From an uncultured Gemmatimonadales bacterium (GTDB lineage Bacteria; Gemmatimonadota; Gemmatimonadetes; Longimicrobiales; RSA9), in contig CAVUKA010000001.1 in the NCBI GenBank assembly GCA_963741945.1, positions 1,088,001 through 1,152,000 of the forward strand: a DNA stretch of 64,000 nucleotides, written 5' to 3'. This document shows, piece by piece, positions 2,365 through 43,358 of the stretch. Made by a program: the position numbers and the translations under genes. How positions within the stretch are numbered: position 1 is the stretch's first letter; every line of letters begins with the position of its first letter. The notes below the pieces were generated by a model. The model saw nothing but the letters and a program-made list of their open reading frames with translations, was not told where the DNA came from and made no database searches.

Positions 2365-3579
2365 TCAGGAGCGGAGCCTCAGCCAGGCCAGGACCACCGC
2401 CACCGCCAGGATCACCAGCAGCCCGGTCAGCTGCAGCGCCCGAAGCCCACGCGGCCGCTCGTCGGAGAGCGACCGCGTGCGCTCGATCCGCCCGGCGCTG
2501 AGGTCGAAGAACCACCCGAGCACCAGAGCGACGGGAAGCCCCGCCAGCGTCGCGGTCACGATCACTTCGGCCGTCCACGGCGGGACATTGAACGGGAGCG
2601 CGGGAAGCGCGGCATCCACCAGCGACAGCACGATGAGTGTGAACGCGCCGTACCCGGCGCCCACCTTGTAGACGTGCCGCCGCTTCAGCTCCGCCAGGAA
2701 GCTCCCGATGGCGCCCTGGGGCGGCGCCGCGGCGCCGCCGGTGAGGCGCGCCCGCAGCAGCCCTGCCGAGGGTCGCTGCTCCGGTCGCTTCTGGAGGCAG
2801 CGGAGGAGGATGTCCTCCATCTCCGGGCCGATGTCCGCCCGCAGGGCCCGCAGACGGGCGGGCTCCTCCGCGAGGTGCGCCCGGATCTGGTCGGCCACCC
2901 GCGTCGCCCCGGGATACGGCCCGTTTCCGGTCAGGAGCTCATACGCGCTCACTGCCAGGGAGTAGATGTCGGAACCGGGCTGGATCGCGTCGCCCTTCAG
3001 CTGCTCGGGCGGGGCGTAGCCGACCTGCCCCAGGATCTGGCCCGCGCCCGTCAGCCGCGTGGCCGCTTCCCCGCCCGTCTCCAGGACCCCCGCGACGCCG
3101 AAGTCCGCCAGGACGATGCGGCCGCCATCGCGGGTGCGCATGATGTTGCCCGGCCGGACGTCGCGATGGATGATCCCGAGCGCATGAGCGGCTTCCAGCG
3201 CGCCACACACCTCCGTCAGCACCTCGCGGACCTCATCCTCGCTCAGCCTGCCGCCGGCCGCCAGGATGTCCGCGTACGTGCGCCCGTCGATGTACTCCAT
3301 CACCAGGTAGGGCCGTCCGTCCGACAGCTCGCCCACCCGATAGACGGAGACGACGGCGGGGTGGTGGATCTTGGCAGCCAGCCGCGCTTCGCGGACGAAG
3401 CGCTGGCGCGCCGTATCGTCCGCCGCCAGCGACCTGCGGAGCACCTTCACGGCCACCGGGCGGTCGAGCGCCCGCTCGCGGCCCAGGAACACCTTTGCGA
3501 ACGCCCCCTCTCCGAGCGGGCGCACCACGTCGAAGTCCGTGCCGAGGTCTTCCCGGAGCGTTTCAATGGCGGGTGTCAT
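2365..3579 (-). CDS. Hanks-type Ser/Thr protein kinase with C-terminal membrane module
   Basis: LGEGAFAKV, VAVK, HRDVRPGN, LADFGVA, YAPPE, DIYSL motifs. The C-terminus 'FLAELKRRHVYK...LPVALVLGWFFDL' has about 3 hydrophobic helices. ATG at 3579 chosen; the upstream part of the ORF track is antisense to the next kinase. Confidence 0.85.
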   Translation of the reverse strand: MTPAIETLREDLGTDFDVVRPLGEGAFAKVFLGRERALDRPVAVKVLRRSLAADDTARQRFVREARLAAKIHHPAVVSVYRVGELSDGRPYLVMEYIDGRTYADILAAGGRLSEDEVREVLTEVCGALEAAHALGIIHRDVRPGNIMRTRDGGRIVLADFGVAGVLETGGEAATRLTGAGQILGQVGYAPPEQLKGDAIQPGSDIYSLAVSAYELLTGNGPYPGATRVADQIRAHLAEEPARLRALRADIGPEMEDILLRCLQKRPEQRPSAGLLRARLTGGAAAPPQGAIGSFLAELKRRHVYKVGAGYGAFTLIVLSLVDAALPALPFNVPPWTAEVIVTATLAGLPVALVLGWFFDLSAGRIERTRSLSDERPRGLRALQLTGLLVILAVAVVLAWLRLRS

Positions 3580-40365: not shown

Positions 40366-41358
40366 TCAGATCAGACCTGCGCCCCTGAAAATGAAGAACA
40401 GAGCCACGCCACCGAGAACCCGGGGGAGTCGATTGGTCCGTGACGTCAGCAGGTACAGCGTGAGGACGGCCCCGATCGGAGCCGCGAAAGCGTACGTCAC
40501 CAGGAACGTCATGAACGCTTCCTGGATCCACAGGCCGATGAGGCGGAACGGCGAGAGCGCGCCAATGCCGGTGTGGATGAGCGGTCCCCCCACCTCCTGG
40601 ACCAGGTCGAACATGAGGAAGATGGCGGTGAACACCGCACCGACCTCCAGGTAGAGCGCCGCTTCCGCCCGCTCTCGACGCCGGAACGGAGCCATGATGA
40701 GGCCCGTCAGCGGGCGAAGGAGGAGCGCGGGGGGCGAGCCCGGACGGTTGTAATAGTAGAAGAGACGGAGCCGATGGCTCCAGCGCACCAGCGACCCCGC
40801 CAGCGGCACTTCGTTCAGCCGCCCCACGTGGCCACCCAGCATGGTCACCAGGATGAGCGCGCCCACGGCGAACGCCGCCTCCGCGCCGCCCTCCACATTC
40901 CCCACCATCCCGCCCAGCACAGACCCGGCGGCAATGAGCACCAGCACGTCCCCGGTCAGACGCACCACCCGCTCCCGCCTCGTCCTCGCCCGCCACCTCT
41001 CCGTCCAGGCGGGCGGGCGGGACAGGACGTCATCGGACAGCGGCGGCATGAAATCCAGCTCCAGCGGCGGAAGCCCCTCCCTCTCCCGCCGCGCCTGCTC
41101 GGCGTTGTACCCCTCCACCATGCGCCTCAACCGCCACGCATCCGAAATCCACCAGAGGAGCGCGCCACCGCCGGTCACGACCATGGCCAGACCCGTCCCC
41201 GGCCGCTCCAGGTAGAAACGGTGCGCACCGAGCCACCCGAACACCGCCCACAACGCCCACGCCACGCCCACGCGCTTGCGTCGATAGGCATACAGCTCCC
41301 CCAGGACATCCTGGGCAAAGTCGGCGTCCACGCCTGCGTGCACCGAGACTGAGCTCAT
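40366..41358 (-). CDS. TM2/NINE domain membrane protein
   Basis: 'KRVGVAWALWAVFGWLGAHRFYL...WWISD' TM2 motif followed by several TM helices. Confidence 0.75.
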   Translation of the reverse strand: MSSVSVHAGVDADFAQDVLGELYAYRRKRVGVAWALWAVFGWLGAHRFYLERPGTGLAMVVTGGGALLWWISDAWRLRRMVEGYNAEQARREREGLPPLELDFMPPLSDDVLSRPPAWTERWRARTRRERVVRLTGDVLVLIAAGSVLGGMVGNVEGGAEAAFAVGALILVTMLGGHVGRLNEVPLAGSLVRWSHRLRLFYYYNRPGSPPALLLRPLTGLIMAPFRRRERAEAALYLEVGAVFTAIFLMFDLVQEVGGPLIHTGIGALSPFRLIGLWIQEAFMTFLVTYAFAAPIGAVLTLYLLTSRTNRLPRVLGGVALFFIFRGAGLI

Positions 41359-41499
41359 GCCCCACAAGCTGCCTCCCGGAGTGGCGATCATGCAACCACG
41401 CCGCCGCCACCCCGGCGACCGGGCCGGCCGGCCCCTCCGCCCGCCCCACCCCGCGCGCCGCGTCCTGCCTCCCATGGACGCGGGAGCGCCCGCCCTCGA

Positions 41500-41620
41500 T
41501 GTGGATAAGCGGCGCCGGCTTGTGGATTCCCTGTGGGAAAACCGGGTCAAAATTGTGAATACGAGCTGTTACAAAACCCGAAGTCCTGATGCCGTGGTCA
41601 GATGGCGGAATTGTGGATTA
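41500..41620. promoter_or_regulatory. Cluster of co-oriented DnaA-box-like sites in a locally AT-richer region
   Basis: TGTGGATAA 41500-41508 (perfect reverse complement of TTATCCACA), TGTGGATTC 41521, TGTGGGAAA 41532, TGTGAATAC 41554, TGTGGATTA 41612. Confidence 0.6.
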
Positions 41621-41695
41621 CGCGGTTTCTGGATCCTCTTCTGACATCCGCATAACTCATTGTCTTGGAACGACTTGTGGCACAACTCAAAATCC

Positions 41696-41725
41696 TTGAC
41701 TGCGGCACCCTCGCGGGTGTATCAT
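41696..41725 (+). promoter_or_regulatory. Sigma70-type promoter
   Basis: -35 TTGACT (41696-41701), 18-nt spacer, -10 TATCAT (41720-41725). The predicted start at ~41733 coincides with the first RNA helix. Confidence 0.7.
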
Positions 41726-41732
41726 TGGATCC

Positions 41733-42020
41733 AGACGGCGATGGTACCGCGACCTAGGAATCAACGCCGTCGCTTCCGGAAGGGACGCTTTTCGGAGGCA
41801 GCTCGCCGAAGGATTCGGCTGACGGCGAGCCGGCTGCGAGGTTACTGGCCGCAGCTGTAGCTCCTGAGGCCATGGAGCACCCGATCCGCGGGTCGCGCGG
41901 TGAGGGGTAAGGCGAAACGAGGCGGAGCGGACCGAAGGGTCACGCCACCGAACCGAAAGCCCTCGACGCCGCCAGTGGTGCGAGCCCCCGGGACCGGTTT
42001 CGACCGAGCCCGGGGGTTCC
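41733..42020 (+). ncRNA. Putative ~290-nt structured non-coding RNA (family unassigned; Ms1-like candidate)
   Basis: Back-to-back helices 41734-41771, 41772-41799, 41801-41830, 41831-41857, 41860-41878, 41886-41900, 41902-41964 and a 3' hairpin 41982-42019. G-U pairs favour the + strand. Two loop-mediated long-range pairings. Has its own promoter and no credible CDS. Confidence 0.7.
41982..42020 (+). terminator. 3' terminal hairpin of the putative ncRNA
   Basis: GAGCCCCCGGG-AC-CGGT-TTCG-ACCG-AG-CCCGGGGGTTC with a UUCG loop; weak U-tract. Confidence 0.55.
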
Positions 42021-42158
42021 TGCATCCAGCCGGCACCCGCGACGGTCCGGCGCGATCCGATCCATCCACCCTCGCCGTTGACGCGAGCGAAATCGCCCGA
42101 CACGCCGTGGACGGCCTGGCCGTCCTGTACGCTGACCCGCTTCCCCGATATCTCGCCC

Positions 42159-43358
42159 ATGGATCGCCGCACCTTCGTGAAGACGGGCGCCGCCGCTGCG
42201 GCCGGCGCCTCACTGCCCCGGGCGCTGCATGCCGAACGCCCGGTCCCGGGGGCGCCCGGTGTGCTGGCGCGCCGAACGCGGGACCCTCTGCTGATTGCGG
42301 ACGTGAGCAGCATCCGGTTCCGGAACGGGGGGACGGAGAGCGCGATCGAGCGGGCGTACCGCGGGATCGAAGCGGGTGAGGATGTCCTGGACGCGCTGGT
42401 TTCGGGCGTGCGCATCCCGGAGCTGGATCCGGAGGAAACGGGGATCGGGTACGGCGGACTGCCGAACGCCAGCGGCGTGGTGCAGCTGGACTCGTGCTGC
42501 ATGCACGGGGAGCGTCGCTGGGCAGGAGGCGTTGCCGCGCTGGAGGGGGTCCCGACCGCGGCGGCGGTAGCGCAGAAGGTGGCGACCCTCACCGACCATC
42601 ATCTTCTCGCGGGAGCGGGGGCGAAGGAGTTCGCCCGTGACGTGGGCTTCGAGATCATGGAGGACCTGAACACGGAGCGCTCGCGCGCGCTCTGGCTCGA
42701 GTGGCGGCGCCGGGTGGACCCGGAGCACTGGCTCGATCCGGATGAGCGGACGGGGCGGGGAGAGAGCGCGGCTGGCATGACGGGGCGCGGGCGGGGCCGG
42801 CAGGCTGCCCGGGCAGAGGCGTGGTACCGGGCCGGACGCTCCATGGTGCGCGACGGCCTGATCCCGGAGCATTCGTTCTGGGGCACCACCAACCTGAACG
42901 CGCTCACGCCTGCGGGGCACGTGGCCGGCGTCACCACCACCAGCGGGCTGGCCTGGAAGATCCCGGGGCGTGTGGGTGACTCGCCGATCCTTGGCGCGGG
43001 GCTCTATGTGGACGATGCCGTGGGCGCAGCGGGGTCCACGGGGCGGGGCGAAGCGAACCTGTACAACCTGTCGAGCTATCTGATCGTCGAGAACATGCGT
43101 CGCGGGCTGGCGCCCAAGGACGCGGGCATGGCCGCCCTGCGTCGCATAGCCGACAACACGGTCGAGCCCCGTCTCCTGAACGACCGCGGGCTCCCCGCGT
43201 TCGATGTCCGGTTCTTCATCCTGGACCGTTCCGGCCGGTACGCCGGCGTGGCGCTGTACGGCGCGGCGGAGAAGATGTTCGCGGTCATGGACGGAAGTGG
43301 CGCGCGGGAGGAGCCGCTGGAAGGCCTGTTCGAGGGGCGCCCGGAGGACGACAGGTAG
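42159..43358 (+). CDS. Tat-exported Ntn-hydrolase, glycosylasparaginase / isoaspartyl peptidase (asparaginase_2) family
   Basis: MDRRTFVK Tat signal, GIGYGGLPN, VQLDSCCM, WGTTN (catalytic Thr), TTTSGLAWKIPGRVGDSPILGAG, STGRGE. Confidence 0.9.
   Translation: MDRRTFVKTGAAAAAGASLPRALHAERPVPGAPGVLARRTRDPLLIADVSSIRFRNGGTESAIERAYRGIEAGEDVLDALVSGVRIPELDPEETGIGYGGLPNASGVVQLDSCCMHGERRWAGGVAALEGVPTAAAVAQKVATLTDHHLLAGAGAKEFARDVGFEIMEDLNTERSRALWLEWRRRVDPEHWLDPDERTGRGESAAGMTGRGRGRQAARAEAWYRAGRSMVRDGLIPEHSFWGTTNLNALTPAGHVAGVTTTSGLAWKIPGRVGDSPILGAGLYVDDAVGAAGSTGRGEANLYNLSSYLIVENMRRGLAPKDAGMAALRRIADNTVEPRLLNDRGLPAFDVRFFILDRSGRYAGVALYGAAEKMFAVMDGSGAREEPLEGLFEGRPEDDR

Follow-up and report, generated by a model that had tools for sequence, protein, structure and literature searches.

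The question raised by this locus is whether positions 41733-42025 (plus strand) of the window, by which we mean the whole 64-kb stretch of DNA analysed, encode a genuine RNA and, if so, whether this RNA belongs to a known class and what it may do in the cell. The preliminary description proposed a promoter-driven RNA with two pseudoknots, possibly related to the actinobacterial Ms1 RNA and otherwise perhaps a new class. We consider it almost certain that the segment is a real RNA gene of a new family. The gene is about 293 nt long (with a predicted 5' end and an approximate 3' end) and includes seven helix domains, two long-range pseudoknots and a terminal hairpin, with a sigma-70-type promoter upstream. 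The minimum free energy of the plus strand is -156.9 kcal/mol (z -4.49), and none of 200 shuffled sequences is as stable; on the opposite strand of the locus z is -1.28, and 19 of 200 shuffles equal or surpass it. The open reading frame on the minus strand that overlaps the RNA (41687-42592) has no Pfam match. A 16-nt direct repeat flanking the RNA (41703-18 and 42031-46) is not seen in the closest relative and was taken as chance.

The promoter occupies 41696..41725 (plus strand) and consists of the -35 box TTGACT (41696-41701), an 18-nt spacer and the -10 box TATCAT (41720-41725). It had been pointed out before, and it proves to be the sole sigma-70-like site in 41000-42600 (shuffle mean 0.1). 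The TTG of the -35 box is invariant and the position of the -10 box is kept in 31 aligned family copies; both boxes also keep their positions in the copies from another family, f2 (families are referred to here by such labels). At the other end, the terminal hairpin is followed by a U-tract in many relatives (f2 and some f1 copies), where it serves as a terminator. In the window region, no U-tract follows the hairpin at 42019 and no canonical terminator was found. The RNA thereby has what is expected of a generic stand-alone bacterial small RNA, namely, a promoter and a terminator of its own conserved together with it, the transcript itself being predicted.

Full-length copies were collected from Gemmatimonadota genomes, and their helices and both pseudoknots covary. 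In the covariation set of 63 copies, which includes non-independent kin and whose alignment was fitted to the nested structure, 83.7% of the pair cells are paired versus 37-44% with the partners slid, changes on both sides occur in 101 of the 105 pairs, and none of 500 shuffles reaches any of these measures. Both the minimum free energy fold and the family consensus contain the helices originally named H1 to H6, together with the GACC-GAAG-GGUC tip and the UUCG-capped 3' hairpin. The remaining helix, H7, had to be corrected: its tip stands, but the pairing GAGGG/CCCTC does not. The pairing supported by the family is 41918-22/41961-65, a weakly paired helix (65.8%); the partner of GAGGG (41902-06) is 41879-82, and the two strands lengthen H6 on its outer side.

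The resulting chain of hairpins, all on the plus strand, begins with P1 (41734-40/41765-71, the former H1; helix 1, 77.4% paired), inside which lies P1a (41742-48/41757-63; helix 2, 69.7%); all 13 pairs of the two show changes on both sides. P2 (41772..41799) is a 12-bp hairpin (41772-83/41788-99, with three G-U pairs; helix 4, 89.4% paired, 12 of 12 pairs covarying), and the G, A and C of its loop (41784-86) are kept at 93, 95 and 90%, respectively. P3 (41801..41830, pairing 41801-08/41823-30; helix 5, 89.3%) is capped by a UUCGG loop, in which UU (41814-15) is conserved. The most conserved part is P4 (41831..41857, pairing 41831-38/41850-57; helix 6, 95.7%), the loop of which carries the near-invariant GGU (41840-42) next to a pseudoknot strand (41843-49). 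P5 (41860..41878; helix 9, 82.2%) varies in sequence and keeps its pairing. P6 (41886-90/41896-900, the former H6; helix 12, 89.2%) is extended outwards, across a GA-rich internal loop, by 41879-82/41905-08 (helix 11, 72.9%). The P7 domain (41911..41970; helices 13-18, 62-88%) is the least certain part; it contains a purine-rich linker, a three-way junction, the GAAG-capped tip hairpin (41930-41) and a conserved CCGAA (A41951). The GC-rich terminal hairpin with its UUCG cap closes the RNA (41982..42019; helices 20-23, 94-98%). Only about nine unpaired positions are conserved at 90% or more.

Both pseudoknots are complementary as initially claimed, and they covary in columns that the covariance model leaves unpaired. 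The first (PK1) links the P1a loop, which bears its 5' strand CGACC (41750-41754), to the P6 loop (41891-41895); it is helix 3, its columns are 91.1% paired, and compensatory changes are found in three of its five pairs, with G-C 32 times and A-U 14 times at one pair and C-G 28 times and U-A 20 times at another. The second (PK2, helix 7) links the P4 loop to GCCAGUG (41971..41977), the strand right before the terminal stem; 92.0% of its columns are paired, and one pair is A-U in 32 copies and G-C in 25. Between them, the two pseudoknots draw the ends of the hairpin chain into a compact body.

No known family accounts for this RNA. A scan of 41500-42200 against all 4227 families of Rfam 15 at E<=10 returned just two junk lncRNA matches, so that none of Ms1, 6S and raiA matches the RNA region. 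At the gathering score, Rfam gives zero matches in the whole 64-kb window and zero in 15 homologous loci; nine short homologous loci at E<=1 yielded three junk matches, all on the terminal hairpin. The initial statement that no tRNA, tmRNA, RNase P, SRP or recognisable riboswitch signature is present agrees with the lack of any tRNA or tmRNA in 41000-42600 and of an Rfam match, and the genes of RNase P RNA, tmRNA and SRP RNA are located elsewhere in the same genome. A literature search on Gemmatimonadetes, Gemmatimonadota and Gemmatimonas combined with non-coding RNA, 6S and pseudoknots (supplements aside) found no description of it. The suggestion of a new, stand-alone RNA class is thus well backed by conservation, covariation, the own promoter and terminator and the absence from Rfam 15.

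Among known RNAs, the raiA motif RNA offers a comparison. According to the accessible portion of PMC10861870, it too is stand-alone and trans-acting, has its own promoter in varied gene contexts, folds into at least six stems and two pseudoknots supported by covariation, and its biochemical role is likewise unassigned. The differences, as far as that text goes, are that raiA occurs in Bacillota and Actinomycetota, whereas the new RNA occurs in Gemmatimonadota and has far fewer invariant bases, and that raiA is reported as single copy (PMC10861870), whereas the new RNA reaches six copies per genome. Furthermore, the new RNA has a module of DnaA boxes upstream in one lineage. Neither a raiA covariance match nor the conserved raiA positions were found when Rfam was applied to the window and 24 homologous loci.

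Homologues were found by blastn in 14 of 41 relatives. The covariance model of the full RNA (R1) finds a single full-length copy in the own genome, that of the window (264.7 bits), and full-length copies in 60 of the 73 genomes of the host family, with one to six per genome; outside this family there is usually one. In the order sample, 78 of 151 genomes match (42/50 in f1, 31/50 in f2 and 4/50 in f3), and in the class-wide sample 32 of 151. The phylum-wide sample gives 21 matches in 151 genomes, all of them from families of the same class, and a broader, shorter core model (R2) has the same distribution (33/151). Among named records, 45 of 80 loci have a full-length match, all titled Gemmatimonad* or Longimicrobiales or, in two cases, unlabelled; 33 loci of other phyla gave no such match. 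The RNA is confined to one class of Gemmatimonadota. Since some smaller genomes are without it, it is dispensable.

The neighbours of the RNA vary between families and include a TM2-domain gene, an asparaginase gene, lipB, rnhA and carA. In many loci (L033, L046, L047, L016, L040, L042, L048, L012, L011, L078, L075 and L071 are among them) the gene that follows the RNA is convergent with it and lies 4-100 nt beyond the hairpin. Family f2 has the order lipB - RNA - rnhA - carA, where rnhA encodes RNase H, and this may be simple inheritance; outside f2, no conserved partner gene was found next to the RNA. Considering that the RNA is not attached to any one neighbouring gene, we are fairly sure that it acts in trans.

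A conserved module of about 260 bp, with a phased array of DnaA-box-like sites, precedes every copy of the RNA in most of the host family. In 31 copies the module and the RNA gene form a unit of about 550 bp; the module travels with the RNA gene and not with the upstream gene. The window contains the 9-mers TGTGGATAA (41500-08, no strand assigned; the exact complement of TTATCCACA), TGTGGATTC (41521-29) and TGTGGGAAA (41533-41), all three within the conserved module, and a further one, TGTGGATTA (41612..41620), which forms a direct repeat (D6) with 41520-28. The boxes in 41500-41541 align with an array conserved in 31 upstream regions (alignment A6), where their positions are fixed relative to the start: about -244 on the plus strand and about -230, -209 and -198 on the minus strand. 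In these regions GTGGANA occurs 2.06 times per 260 nt versus 0.064 genome-wide, and strict DnaA-box 9-mers 0.71 times versus 0.0018. Identical box variants are present at the presumed oriC beside dnaA, and the window locus is one of the four densest box clusters of the genome; its array, with only one strict 9-mer, is more degenerate than those of most relatives. The window itself was considered as oriC and rejected: contig C4 holds dnaA together with the densest box cluster, and the window shows no skew switch.

The module has two more elements. The most conserved distal one, TGTGRAT-N6-YGTTACA (41554..41573, plus strand), matches once in the window versus 0.00 expected and once in the whole 4.09-Mb genome, where a control pattern has no match; its GTG and GTTACA are invariant in all 31 upstream regions. 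The other is a palindrome-like GTAAC-N18-GTTAC, located in relatives directly upstream of the -35 box; the window has a degenerate copy (41651..41679), in which the left half (ATAAC) alone is well kept. A small open reading frame in the module (21 of the 31 copies have the ATG, and 13 of the 31 have a frame of 17 codons) was discarded: the peptides are unrelated, so it is not coding.

It is tempting to propose that transcription of the RNA in the host lineage is controlled by DnaA, and the array makes this a reasonable possibility, which we nevertheless hold only tentatively. Many of the boxes read CGTGGA and not TGTGGA, so that they could be recognised by a different DNA-binding protein. The array is absent or nearly absent in 26 copies from f2, f3, f7, f8 and a second subgroup of f1; being limited to part of the host family, it cannot explain the core function of the RNA. 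Clusters of DnaA boxes outside oriC are known, namely, datA and DARS of E. coli and the clusters of B. subtilis. The present array is similar to them in having several phased DnaA-box-like sites off the origin and beside a transcribed gene, and it differs from them in that the (predicted) sites are coupled to and duplicated with a structured RNA gene and are restricted to one bacterial family.

Concerning the function of the RNA, we presume, with confidence that falls a little short of even, that this trans-acting structured RNA works by binding a protein, either as a scaffold or as a decoy. The contact surface would be made of the near-invariant unpaired bases, i.e., the GAC of the P2 loop, the UU of P3, the GGU of P4 and A41951. 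Transcription would be the main point at which the cellular level of the RNA is set; in the host lineage, DnaA may bind the phased sites, which lie some 170-250 nt ahead of the start, and a second factor may bind the palindrome-like site directly upstream of the -35 box. Two points weigh against protein binding: no conserved neighbour outside f2 hints at the partner, and compact folds with two pseudoknots are found just as typically in ribozymes, ligand sensors and RNA-only assemblies.

The latter point leads to the rival that survives best, although we regard it as unlikely: the RNA could work without a dedicated protein, as a ribozyme, a trans-acting sensor of a small molecule or an RNA-only multimer. 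Such complexity is usual in catalytic or ligand-binding RNAs, and the two covarying pseudoknots, the GA-rich internal loop, the stable tetraloops and the few near-invariant unpaired bases are in its favour; however, no ribozyme or riboswitch family of Rfam 15 matches, and no conserved gene context hints at a substrate or a ligand. In addition, the unpaired positions that are conserved at the 90% level are few when set against the 51 highly conserved positions given for raiA motif RNAs in the available part of PMC10861870.

RNA polymerase is not favoured as the protein partner. An Ms1- or 6S-like RNA would bind the polymerase (core or holoenzyme) and store or block it in slow growth; the earlier Ms1-like reading had this in mind, and we now find it improbable. 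It is true that the RNA, at about 290 nt, resembles Ms1 in size (about 300 nt), and that both are stand-alone, with hairpins at both ends and a GC-rich host (PMC9130861, in the part available). With 6S RNA (SsrS) it shares a non-essential nature, transcription from a promoter and a usually single-copy, conserved housekeeping-type locus (in f2), and it has a strong promoter and a terminator of its own. The Rfam 6S model (RF00013) also made 6S RNA seem to be missing, with zero matches in the own genome at E<=1, one sub-threshold match in 61 genomes of the order and, across the class, matches in 17 of 151 genomes, none of which carries the new RNA.

The apparent lack of 6S RNA and the apparent complementary pattern of the two RNAs, both derived from RF00013, were overturned by a class-specific 6S covariance model (R3). 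In the own genome R3 finds one 6S-like RNA (G000:C5:151784-151963, 52.6 bits), which scores 26.7 bits with the Rfam 6S model and folds as a rod; R3 matches are present in 14 of the 32 genomes bearing the new RNA. R3 has no match in the 64-kb window at E<=1, and RF00013 none on the RNA region at E<=10; the new RNA also differs from 6S RNA in size and fold, and its coexistence with a separate 6S-like gene shows that it is more than a local form of a known housekeeping RNA.

As to Ms1, Rfam 15 gives no match at E<=10. According to the available text of PMC9130861, Rfam supplies the Ms1 candidates, and its model finds Ms1 near mycobacteria only, so that this test is weak for distant relatives. As for the fold, the same text describes Ms1 as a rod like that of 6S RNA, double-stranded around a central bubble, with a short hairpin at its 5' end and another at its 3' end (PMC9130861), whereas the covariation supports a chain of P1/P1a, P2-P6 and a three-way P7 with two pseudoknots, with neither a rod nor a central bubble, and the 5' and 3' ends of the RNA are unpaired with each other. 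Ms1 is typical of hosts that lack canonical 6S RNA and keeps a conserved synteny with a HAD hydrolase gene; the present host keeps its 6S-like RNA, and no HAD-hydrolase synteny was seen among the neighbours scanned. A literature search for Ms1 RNA cryo-EM found no Ms1 structure. The motifs AGCUCCU, GAGCACCC and AGGCGAAA, on which the likeness had partly rested, turn out to be genus-specific and variable across the family.

We also doubt strongly that the RNA is a regulatory small RNA or a sponge that base-pairs with mRNAs or other RNAs by way of an accessible stretch, for instance the purine-rich linker 41901-41917. The linker is single-stranded in the model, the gene has its stand-alone promoter and terminator, and genomes of the host family carry several diverged paralogues, as in many small RNA families. 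The linker sequence, however, is unconserved at the 70% level, which leaves the family without a common seed; what is conserved in the RNA is what pairs internally; and its size and knotted fold are unusual for such RNAs.

A further possibility, to which we assign a similarly low probability, is a replication-linked cassette, in which the array and the strongly transcribed structured RNA would act on DNA replication, either as a DnaA-titrating or DnaA-reactivating site whose activity depends on transcription, or with the RNA serving in an R-loop or as a primer. The array and the RNA are kept together (about 550 bp, 31 copies) as the flanking genes change, the locus ranks in the top four of the genome by box density, and the RNA gene adjoins rnhA in f2. 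Against this, f2, f3, f7, f8 and part of f1 have the RNA without the array; as many as six copies per genome speak against true origins; the likely oriC is beside dnaA on another contig; and only one family shows the rnhA synteny.

A cis-acting leader or riboswitch of the downstream TAT-signal asparaginase gene (start near 42160), which is on the same strand 135 nt downstream of the RNA, is very improbable: the RNA is not consistently found in the 5' untranslated region of a co-oriented, function-related gene, since the downstream gene is convergent in many homologous loci and unrelated from locus to locus, and U-tract terminators follow the RNA in relatives. A sponge of CsrA of the CsrB/RsmZ type acting through GGA loop motifs was rejected as next to impossible: the own genome encodes CsrA and the GGAC-containing loop of P2 is conserved, but this is the only conserved GGA loop, and CsrA does not co-occur with the RNA (11 of 151 genomes of the class, 4 of 32 carriers and, in f2, 1 of 32).

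Returning to the protein-binding RNA with its upstream array, a bolder idea, quite unlikely in our opinion, is that the cassette of about 550 bp, made up of the phased array, a second operator, the promoter and the RNA with its two pseudoknots, is a sensor and effector of replication status: DnaA occupancy would set the level of the RNA, and the RNA would act on the initiation of replication or on cell-cycle control, and duplications of the cassette, up to six per genome, would serve to tune the circuit. If true, this would be the first DnaA-controlled structured RNA class.

Among bacterial RNAs with genes of their own, few are large and intricately folded. The well-supported classes (RNase P, tmRNA, 6S, OLE, raiA and others) each led to distinct cell biology. 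The phylum to which the new RNA is restricted is abundant in soil and sediment and has been little studied. Some Gemmatimonadota have been cultured, as the part of PMC11651109 at hand states, so the RNA is testable, provided that the cultured strains carry it. Being conserved across one class of this phylum, the RNA probably has a significant job in the cell, and the DnaA-box array in one family is a concrete handle on the timing of its synthesis.

We believe that the RNA gene at 41733-42025 (+) most likely represents a new RNA class, compactly folded and acting in trans; a new class was the second option of the preliminary description. The RNA has homologues, its helices and pseudoknots covary, and it is absent from Rfam 15. 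The segment 41400-42400 was inspected directly. The proposed promoter (TTGACT-18-TATCAT, 41696-41725) is present and is the sole sigma-70-like site found by a promoter scan in 41000-42600, against 0.1 in shuffles. The + strand of 41733-42025 folds at -156.9 kcal/mol (z -4.49), equalled by none of 200 shuffles, and the reverse complement has an ordinary fold (z -1.28; 19 of 200 shuffles as good). The computed fold contains every helix initially listed, and both suggested loop-to-distant-strand pairings are complementary at each base. ARAGORN agrees that there is no tRNA or tmRNA. The proposed Rfam 15 scan gave nothing across the whole window at the gathering score and, at E<=10 in 41500-42200, two junk lncRNA matches and nothing else. 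Supplements and subscription journals aside, no published description of this RNA was found in the literature. The start, end, transcription and abundance of the ~290-nt RNA are predictions.

With 41690-42030 as the blastn query, 14 of 41 related genomes match, all in the host family (f1), several with more than one copy. Nineteen copies were aligned (A1), and a full-length covariance model (R1) was built using the fold of the RNA in the window. In the window's genome, R1 scores a single full-length copy at 264.7 bits and also gives two partial hairpin matches on contig C6; these fall on both strands of a palindromic GC-rich hairpin (109389-109444; 27.6 and 26.7 bits, terminal-stem part of R1), which is probably an unrelated terminator. 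The search for homologues among Gemmatimonadota, also suggested at the outset, was productive: R1 matches 60 of 73 host-family genomes (~110 full-length copies, 1-6 per genome, often in tandem), 78 of 151 genomes of the order (f1 42/50, f2 31/50, f3 4/50; f2-f13 are other families of the phylum) and 32 of 151 in a class sample (f1 4/4, f2 20/32, f3 1/3, f7 1/35, f8 5/10), with no match there in f4 (31), f5 (28), f6 (3) and f9 (4). The phylum-wide sample gave 21 of 151, each in a family of the same class, and 0/21 in f10-f13. A model of the conserved core only (R2, built from six families, alignment A5) matches 33 of 151 genomes with the same distribution; thus, the patchiness is not merely a sensitivity limit of R1. 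The 12 non-matching f2 genomes include the smallest of that family (2.0-3.7 Mb vs 3.2-4.8 Mb for carriers), so the RNA is dispensable.

Named public genomes were scanned for the exact pattern of the P4 loop (at least 80 loci). Of the 80 loci listed, 45 have full-length copies by R1 (48 matches); 43 of the 45 are titled Gemmatimonadaceae, Gemmatimonadales, Gemmatimonadota, Gemmatimonadetes or Longimicrobiales (an order of Gemmatimonadota) and 2 are unlabelled. Among the matches listed, the 33 loci from other phyla contain no full-length copy; any R1 match there is confined to ~21-47 nt around the searched motif. Unpublished genomes (G016, G017 and G020 in alignments A1, A2, A4 and A5; G076 in the tallies; G026, G185 and G188 in the 6S tallies) are never the sole basis of a conclusion.

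Tandem and dispersed copies occur at loci L030 (G013:C2), L035, L049, L051, L014 and L028; three genomes of a single genus (L035, L049, L051) carry two diverged paralogue types side by side. Genome G013 has two copies separated by one gene, and their identical R1 scores suggest a recent duplication. Decayed or truncated copies were also observed: L022 (G021:C381:1410-1698) retains P4 onwards only and no promoter, and the matches in G070:C30, G080:C31, G083:C155 and G007:C285 are limited to model positions 146-291 or to shorter stretches.

The covariation proposed for the helices and both pseudoknots was assessed on 63 matches aligned to R1 (A2), counting pairs of the nested structure and the pseudoknots. 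Standard pairs occupy 83.7% of 6220 pair cells, vs 37-44% after shifting the 3' partners by 1-3 columns; changes on both sides are found in 101 of 105 pairs, and none of five measures was reached in any of 500 shuffles. By helix, the share of paired cells is P1 77%, P1a 70%, P2 89%, P3 89%, P4 96%, P5 82%, P6 89%, P7 domain 62-88% and terminal stem 94-98%. All these figures are inflated, because the alignment had been made to follow the nested structure. The pseudoknots are outside the covariance model; hence, their pairing is an independent test. PK1, between the P1a and P6 loops (41750-54/41891-95), is paired in 91% of cells (G-C 32 and A-U 14 at one pair, C-G 28 and U-A 20 at another), and PK2, between the P4 loop and the strand before the terminal stem (41843-49/41971-77), in 92% (A-U 32, G-C 25). 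Only a few unpaired positions reach 90% conservation: GAC (P2 loop), UU (P3 loop), GGU (P4 loop) and A41951.

The distance from the -35/-10 elements to the RNA is constant in 31 aligned family copies. The f2 promoters (consensus TTGACA-17-TATCAT-like) lie slightly more upstream, and a U-tract follows the terminal hairpin in f2 and some f1 copies. In f8 (L074-L077), ~50-70 nt upstream of the RNA, a GGGAWTTYCC-like motif replaces the TTGAC -35, which may reflect another sigma factor or regulator there. In the window, the RNA is flanked by a divergent gene of a TM2-domain membrane protein (40366-41475, -) and an Asparaginase_2 family gene with a twin-arginine (TAT) signal (42160-43358, +), neither of which is beside the RNA outside the genus. 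In about ten f2 loci (L060-L071, RNA at about 3001-3300) the order is 2-oxoacid dehydrogenase E2, lipB, RNA, rnhA (convergent), carA; in L071, a small gene with a RelA/SpoT domain has been inserted on the upstream side of the RNA. Unrelated genes flank it in f3, f7 and f8, and in many loci the downstream neighbour is convergent, 4-100 nt off. The RNA's own promoter and terminator, these convergent genes and the differing neighbours rule out a leader or riboswitch role.

By analogy, the raiA motif RNA is the closest in style. PMC10861870 describes six or more stems, two pseudoknots, trans action, varied contexts and no known biochemistry; the new RNA resembles it in all these structural and contextual traits, but does not match the raiA model and belongs to a different phylum. 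An activity of the RNA alone we consider unlikely. A base-pairing regulator is less likely still: the sequence of the purine-rich linker is not conserved, which speaks against a seed shared across the family. A replication-linked cassette ranks equally low.

Alignment of the 260-nt upstream regions of 31 f1 copies (A6) shows a module conserved as one unit with the RNA gene, with upstream genes unrelated beyond close kin. Its boxes form a phased array of DnaA-box-like sites at fixed positions. Toward the RNA, it comprises a TTnTCCACA box (about -244), three reverse boxes nGTGGAnA (about -230, -209 and -198; spacing 21 and 11 nt), an A/T-rich stretch, an almost invariant TGTGRAT-N6-YGTTACA element, a GATGCG...GGTTTC segment and, last before the promoter, a GTAAC-N18-GTTAC palindrome. 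The upstream regions hold 2.06 GTGGANA sites per 260 nt vs 0.064 in the genome, and 0.71 strict 9-mers vs 0.0018. The window has DnaA-box-like sites at 41500-08 (exact DnaA-box complement), 41521-29, 41533-41 and 41612-20, and the 20-nt element (41554-73) occurs once in the 4.09-Mb genome. A 17-codon frame in the module was rejected as its protein sequence is not conserved. The locus was also rejected as oriC: there is no skew switch in the window, and the genome's densest box cluster (C4:291500-291830), the likely oriC, lies beside dnaA on contig C4. A second cluster with three strict boxes (C4:301160-301290) lies about 9.5 kb from the dnaA-side one. The boxes beside dnaA are the same variants as those of the module, which makes DnaA the obvious candidate to read the module. 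In 26 copies from f2, f3, f7, f8 and another f1 subgroup, little or nothing of the module is present; it would be a lineage-specific control layer outside the core function of the RNA.

Binding to RNA polymerase, the role first proposed by likeness to Ms1, may be given as small a chance as a base-pairing regulator or a replication-linked cassette. In PMC9130861, Ms1 is a 6S-like rod of about 300 nt with a central bubble and two short end hairpins, a polymerase-core binder linked to a HAD hydrolase gene, present in Actinobacteria without 6S, with Rfam candidates confined to organisms near mycobacteria; no testable feature of that description is found here, and the motifs likened to those of Ms1 belong to P5, P6 and the linker as they are in this genus and vary across the family. 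The Rfam 6S model (RF00013) finds nothing in the window's genome at E<=1, one weak match in 61 genomes of the order, and matches in 17 of 151 class genomes (all f3, f4 and f9), none a carrier of the new RNA. This apparently complementary distribution was undone by a class-specific 6S model (R3, from 14 of those matches, A7), which matches 89 of 151 genomes (f1 4/4, f2 11/32, f3 3/3, f4 30/31, f5 12/28, f6 1/3, f7 18/35, f8 5/10, f9 4/4), including 14 of the 32 carriers. In the window's genome it detects a candidate overlooked by the whole-genome Rfam search (C5:151784-151963, -, or L241:201-380; 52.6 bits), which folds as a rod and, scanned alone with RF00013, scores 26.7 bits (E 0.0017); R3 has no match in the window. 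By these model matches, the new RNA co-exists with 6S and is not a local substitute for it. A CsrA sponge is out, since CsrA is present in 11 of 151 class genomes and only 4 of 32 carriers.

We tentatively prefer a protein-binding role, somewhat short of an even chance but ahead of the alternatives: the RNA would serve as a scaffold or decoy whose level would be set by transcription, and in this lineage DnaA and a second factor would probably control the transcription of its gene.
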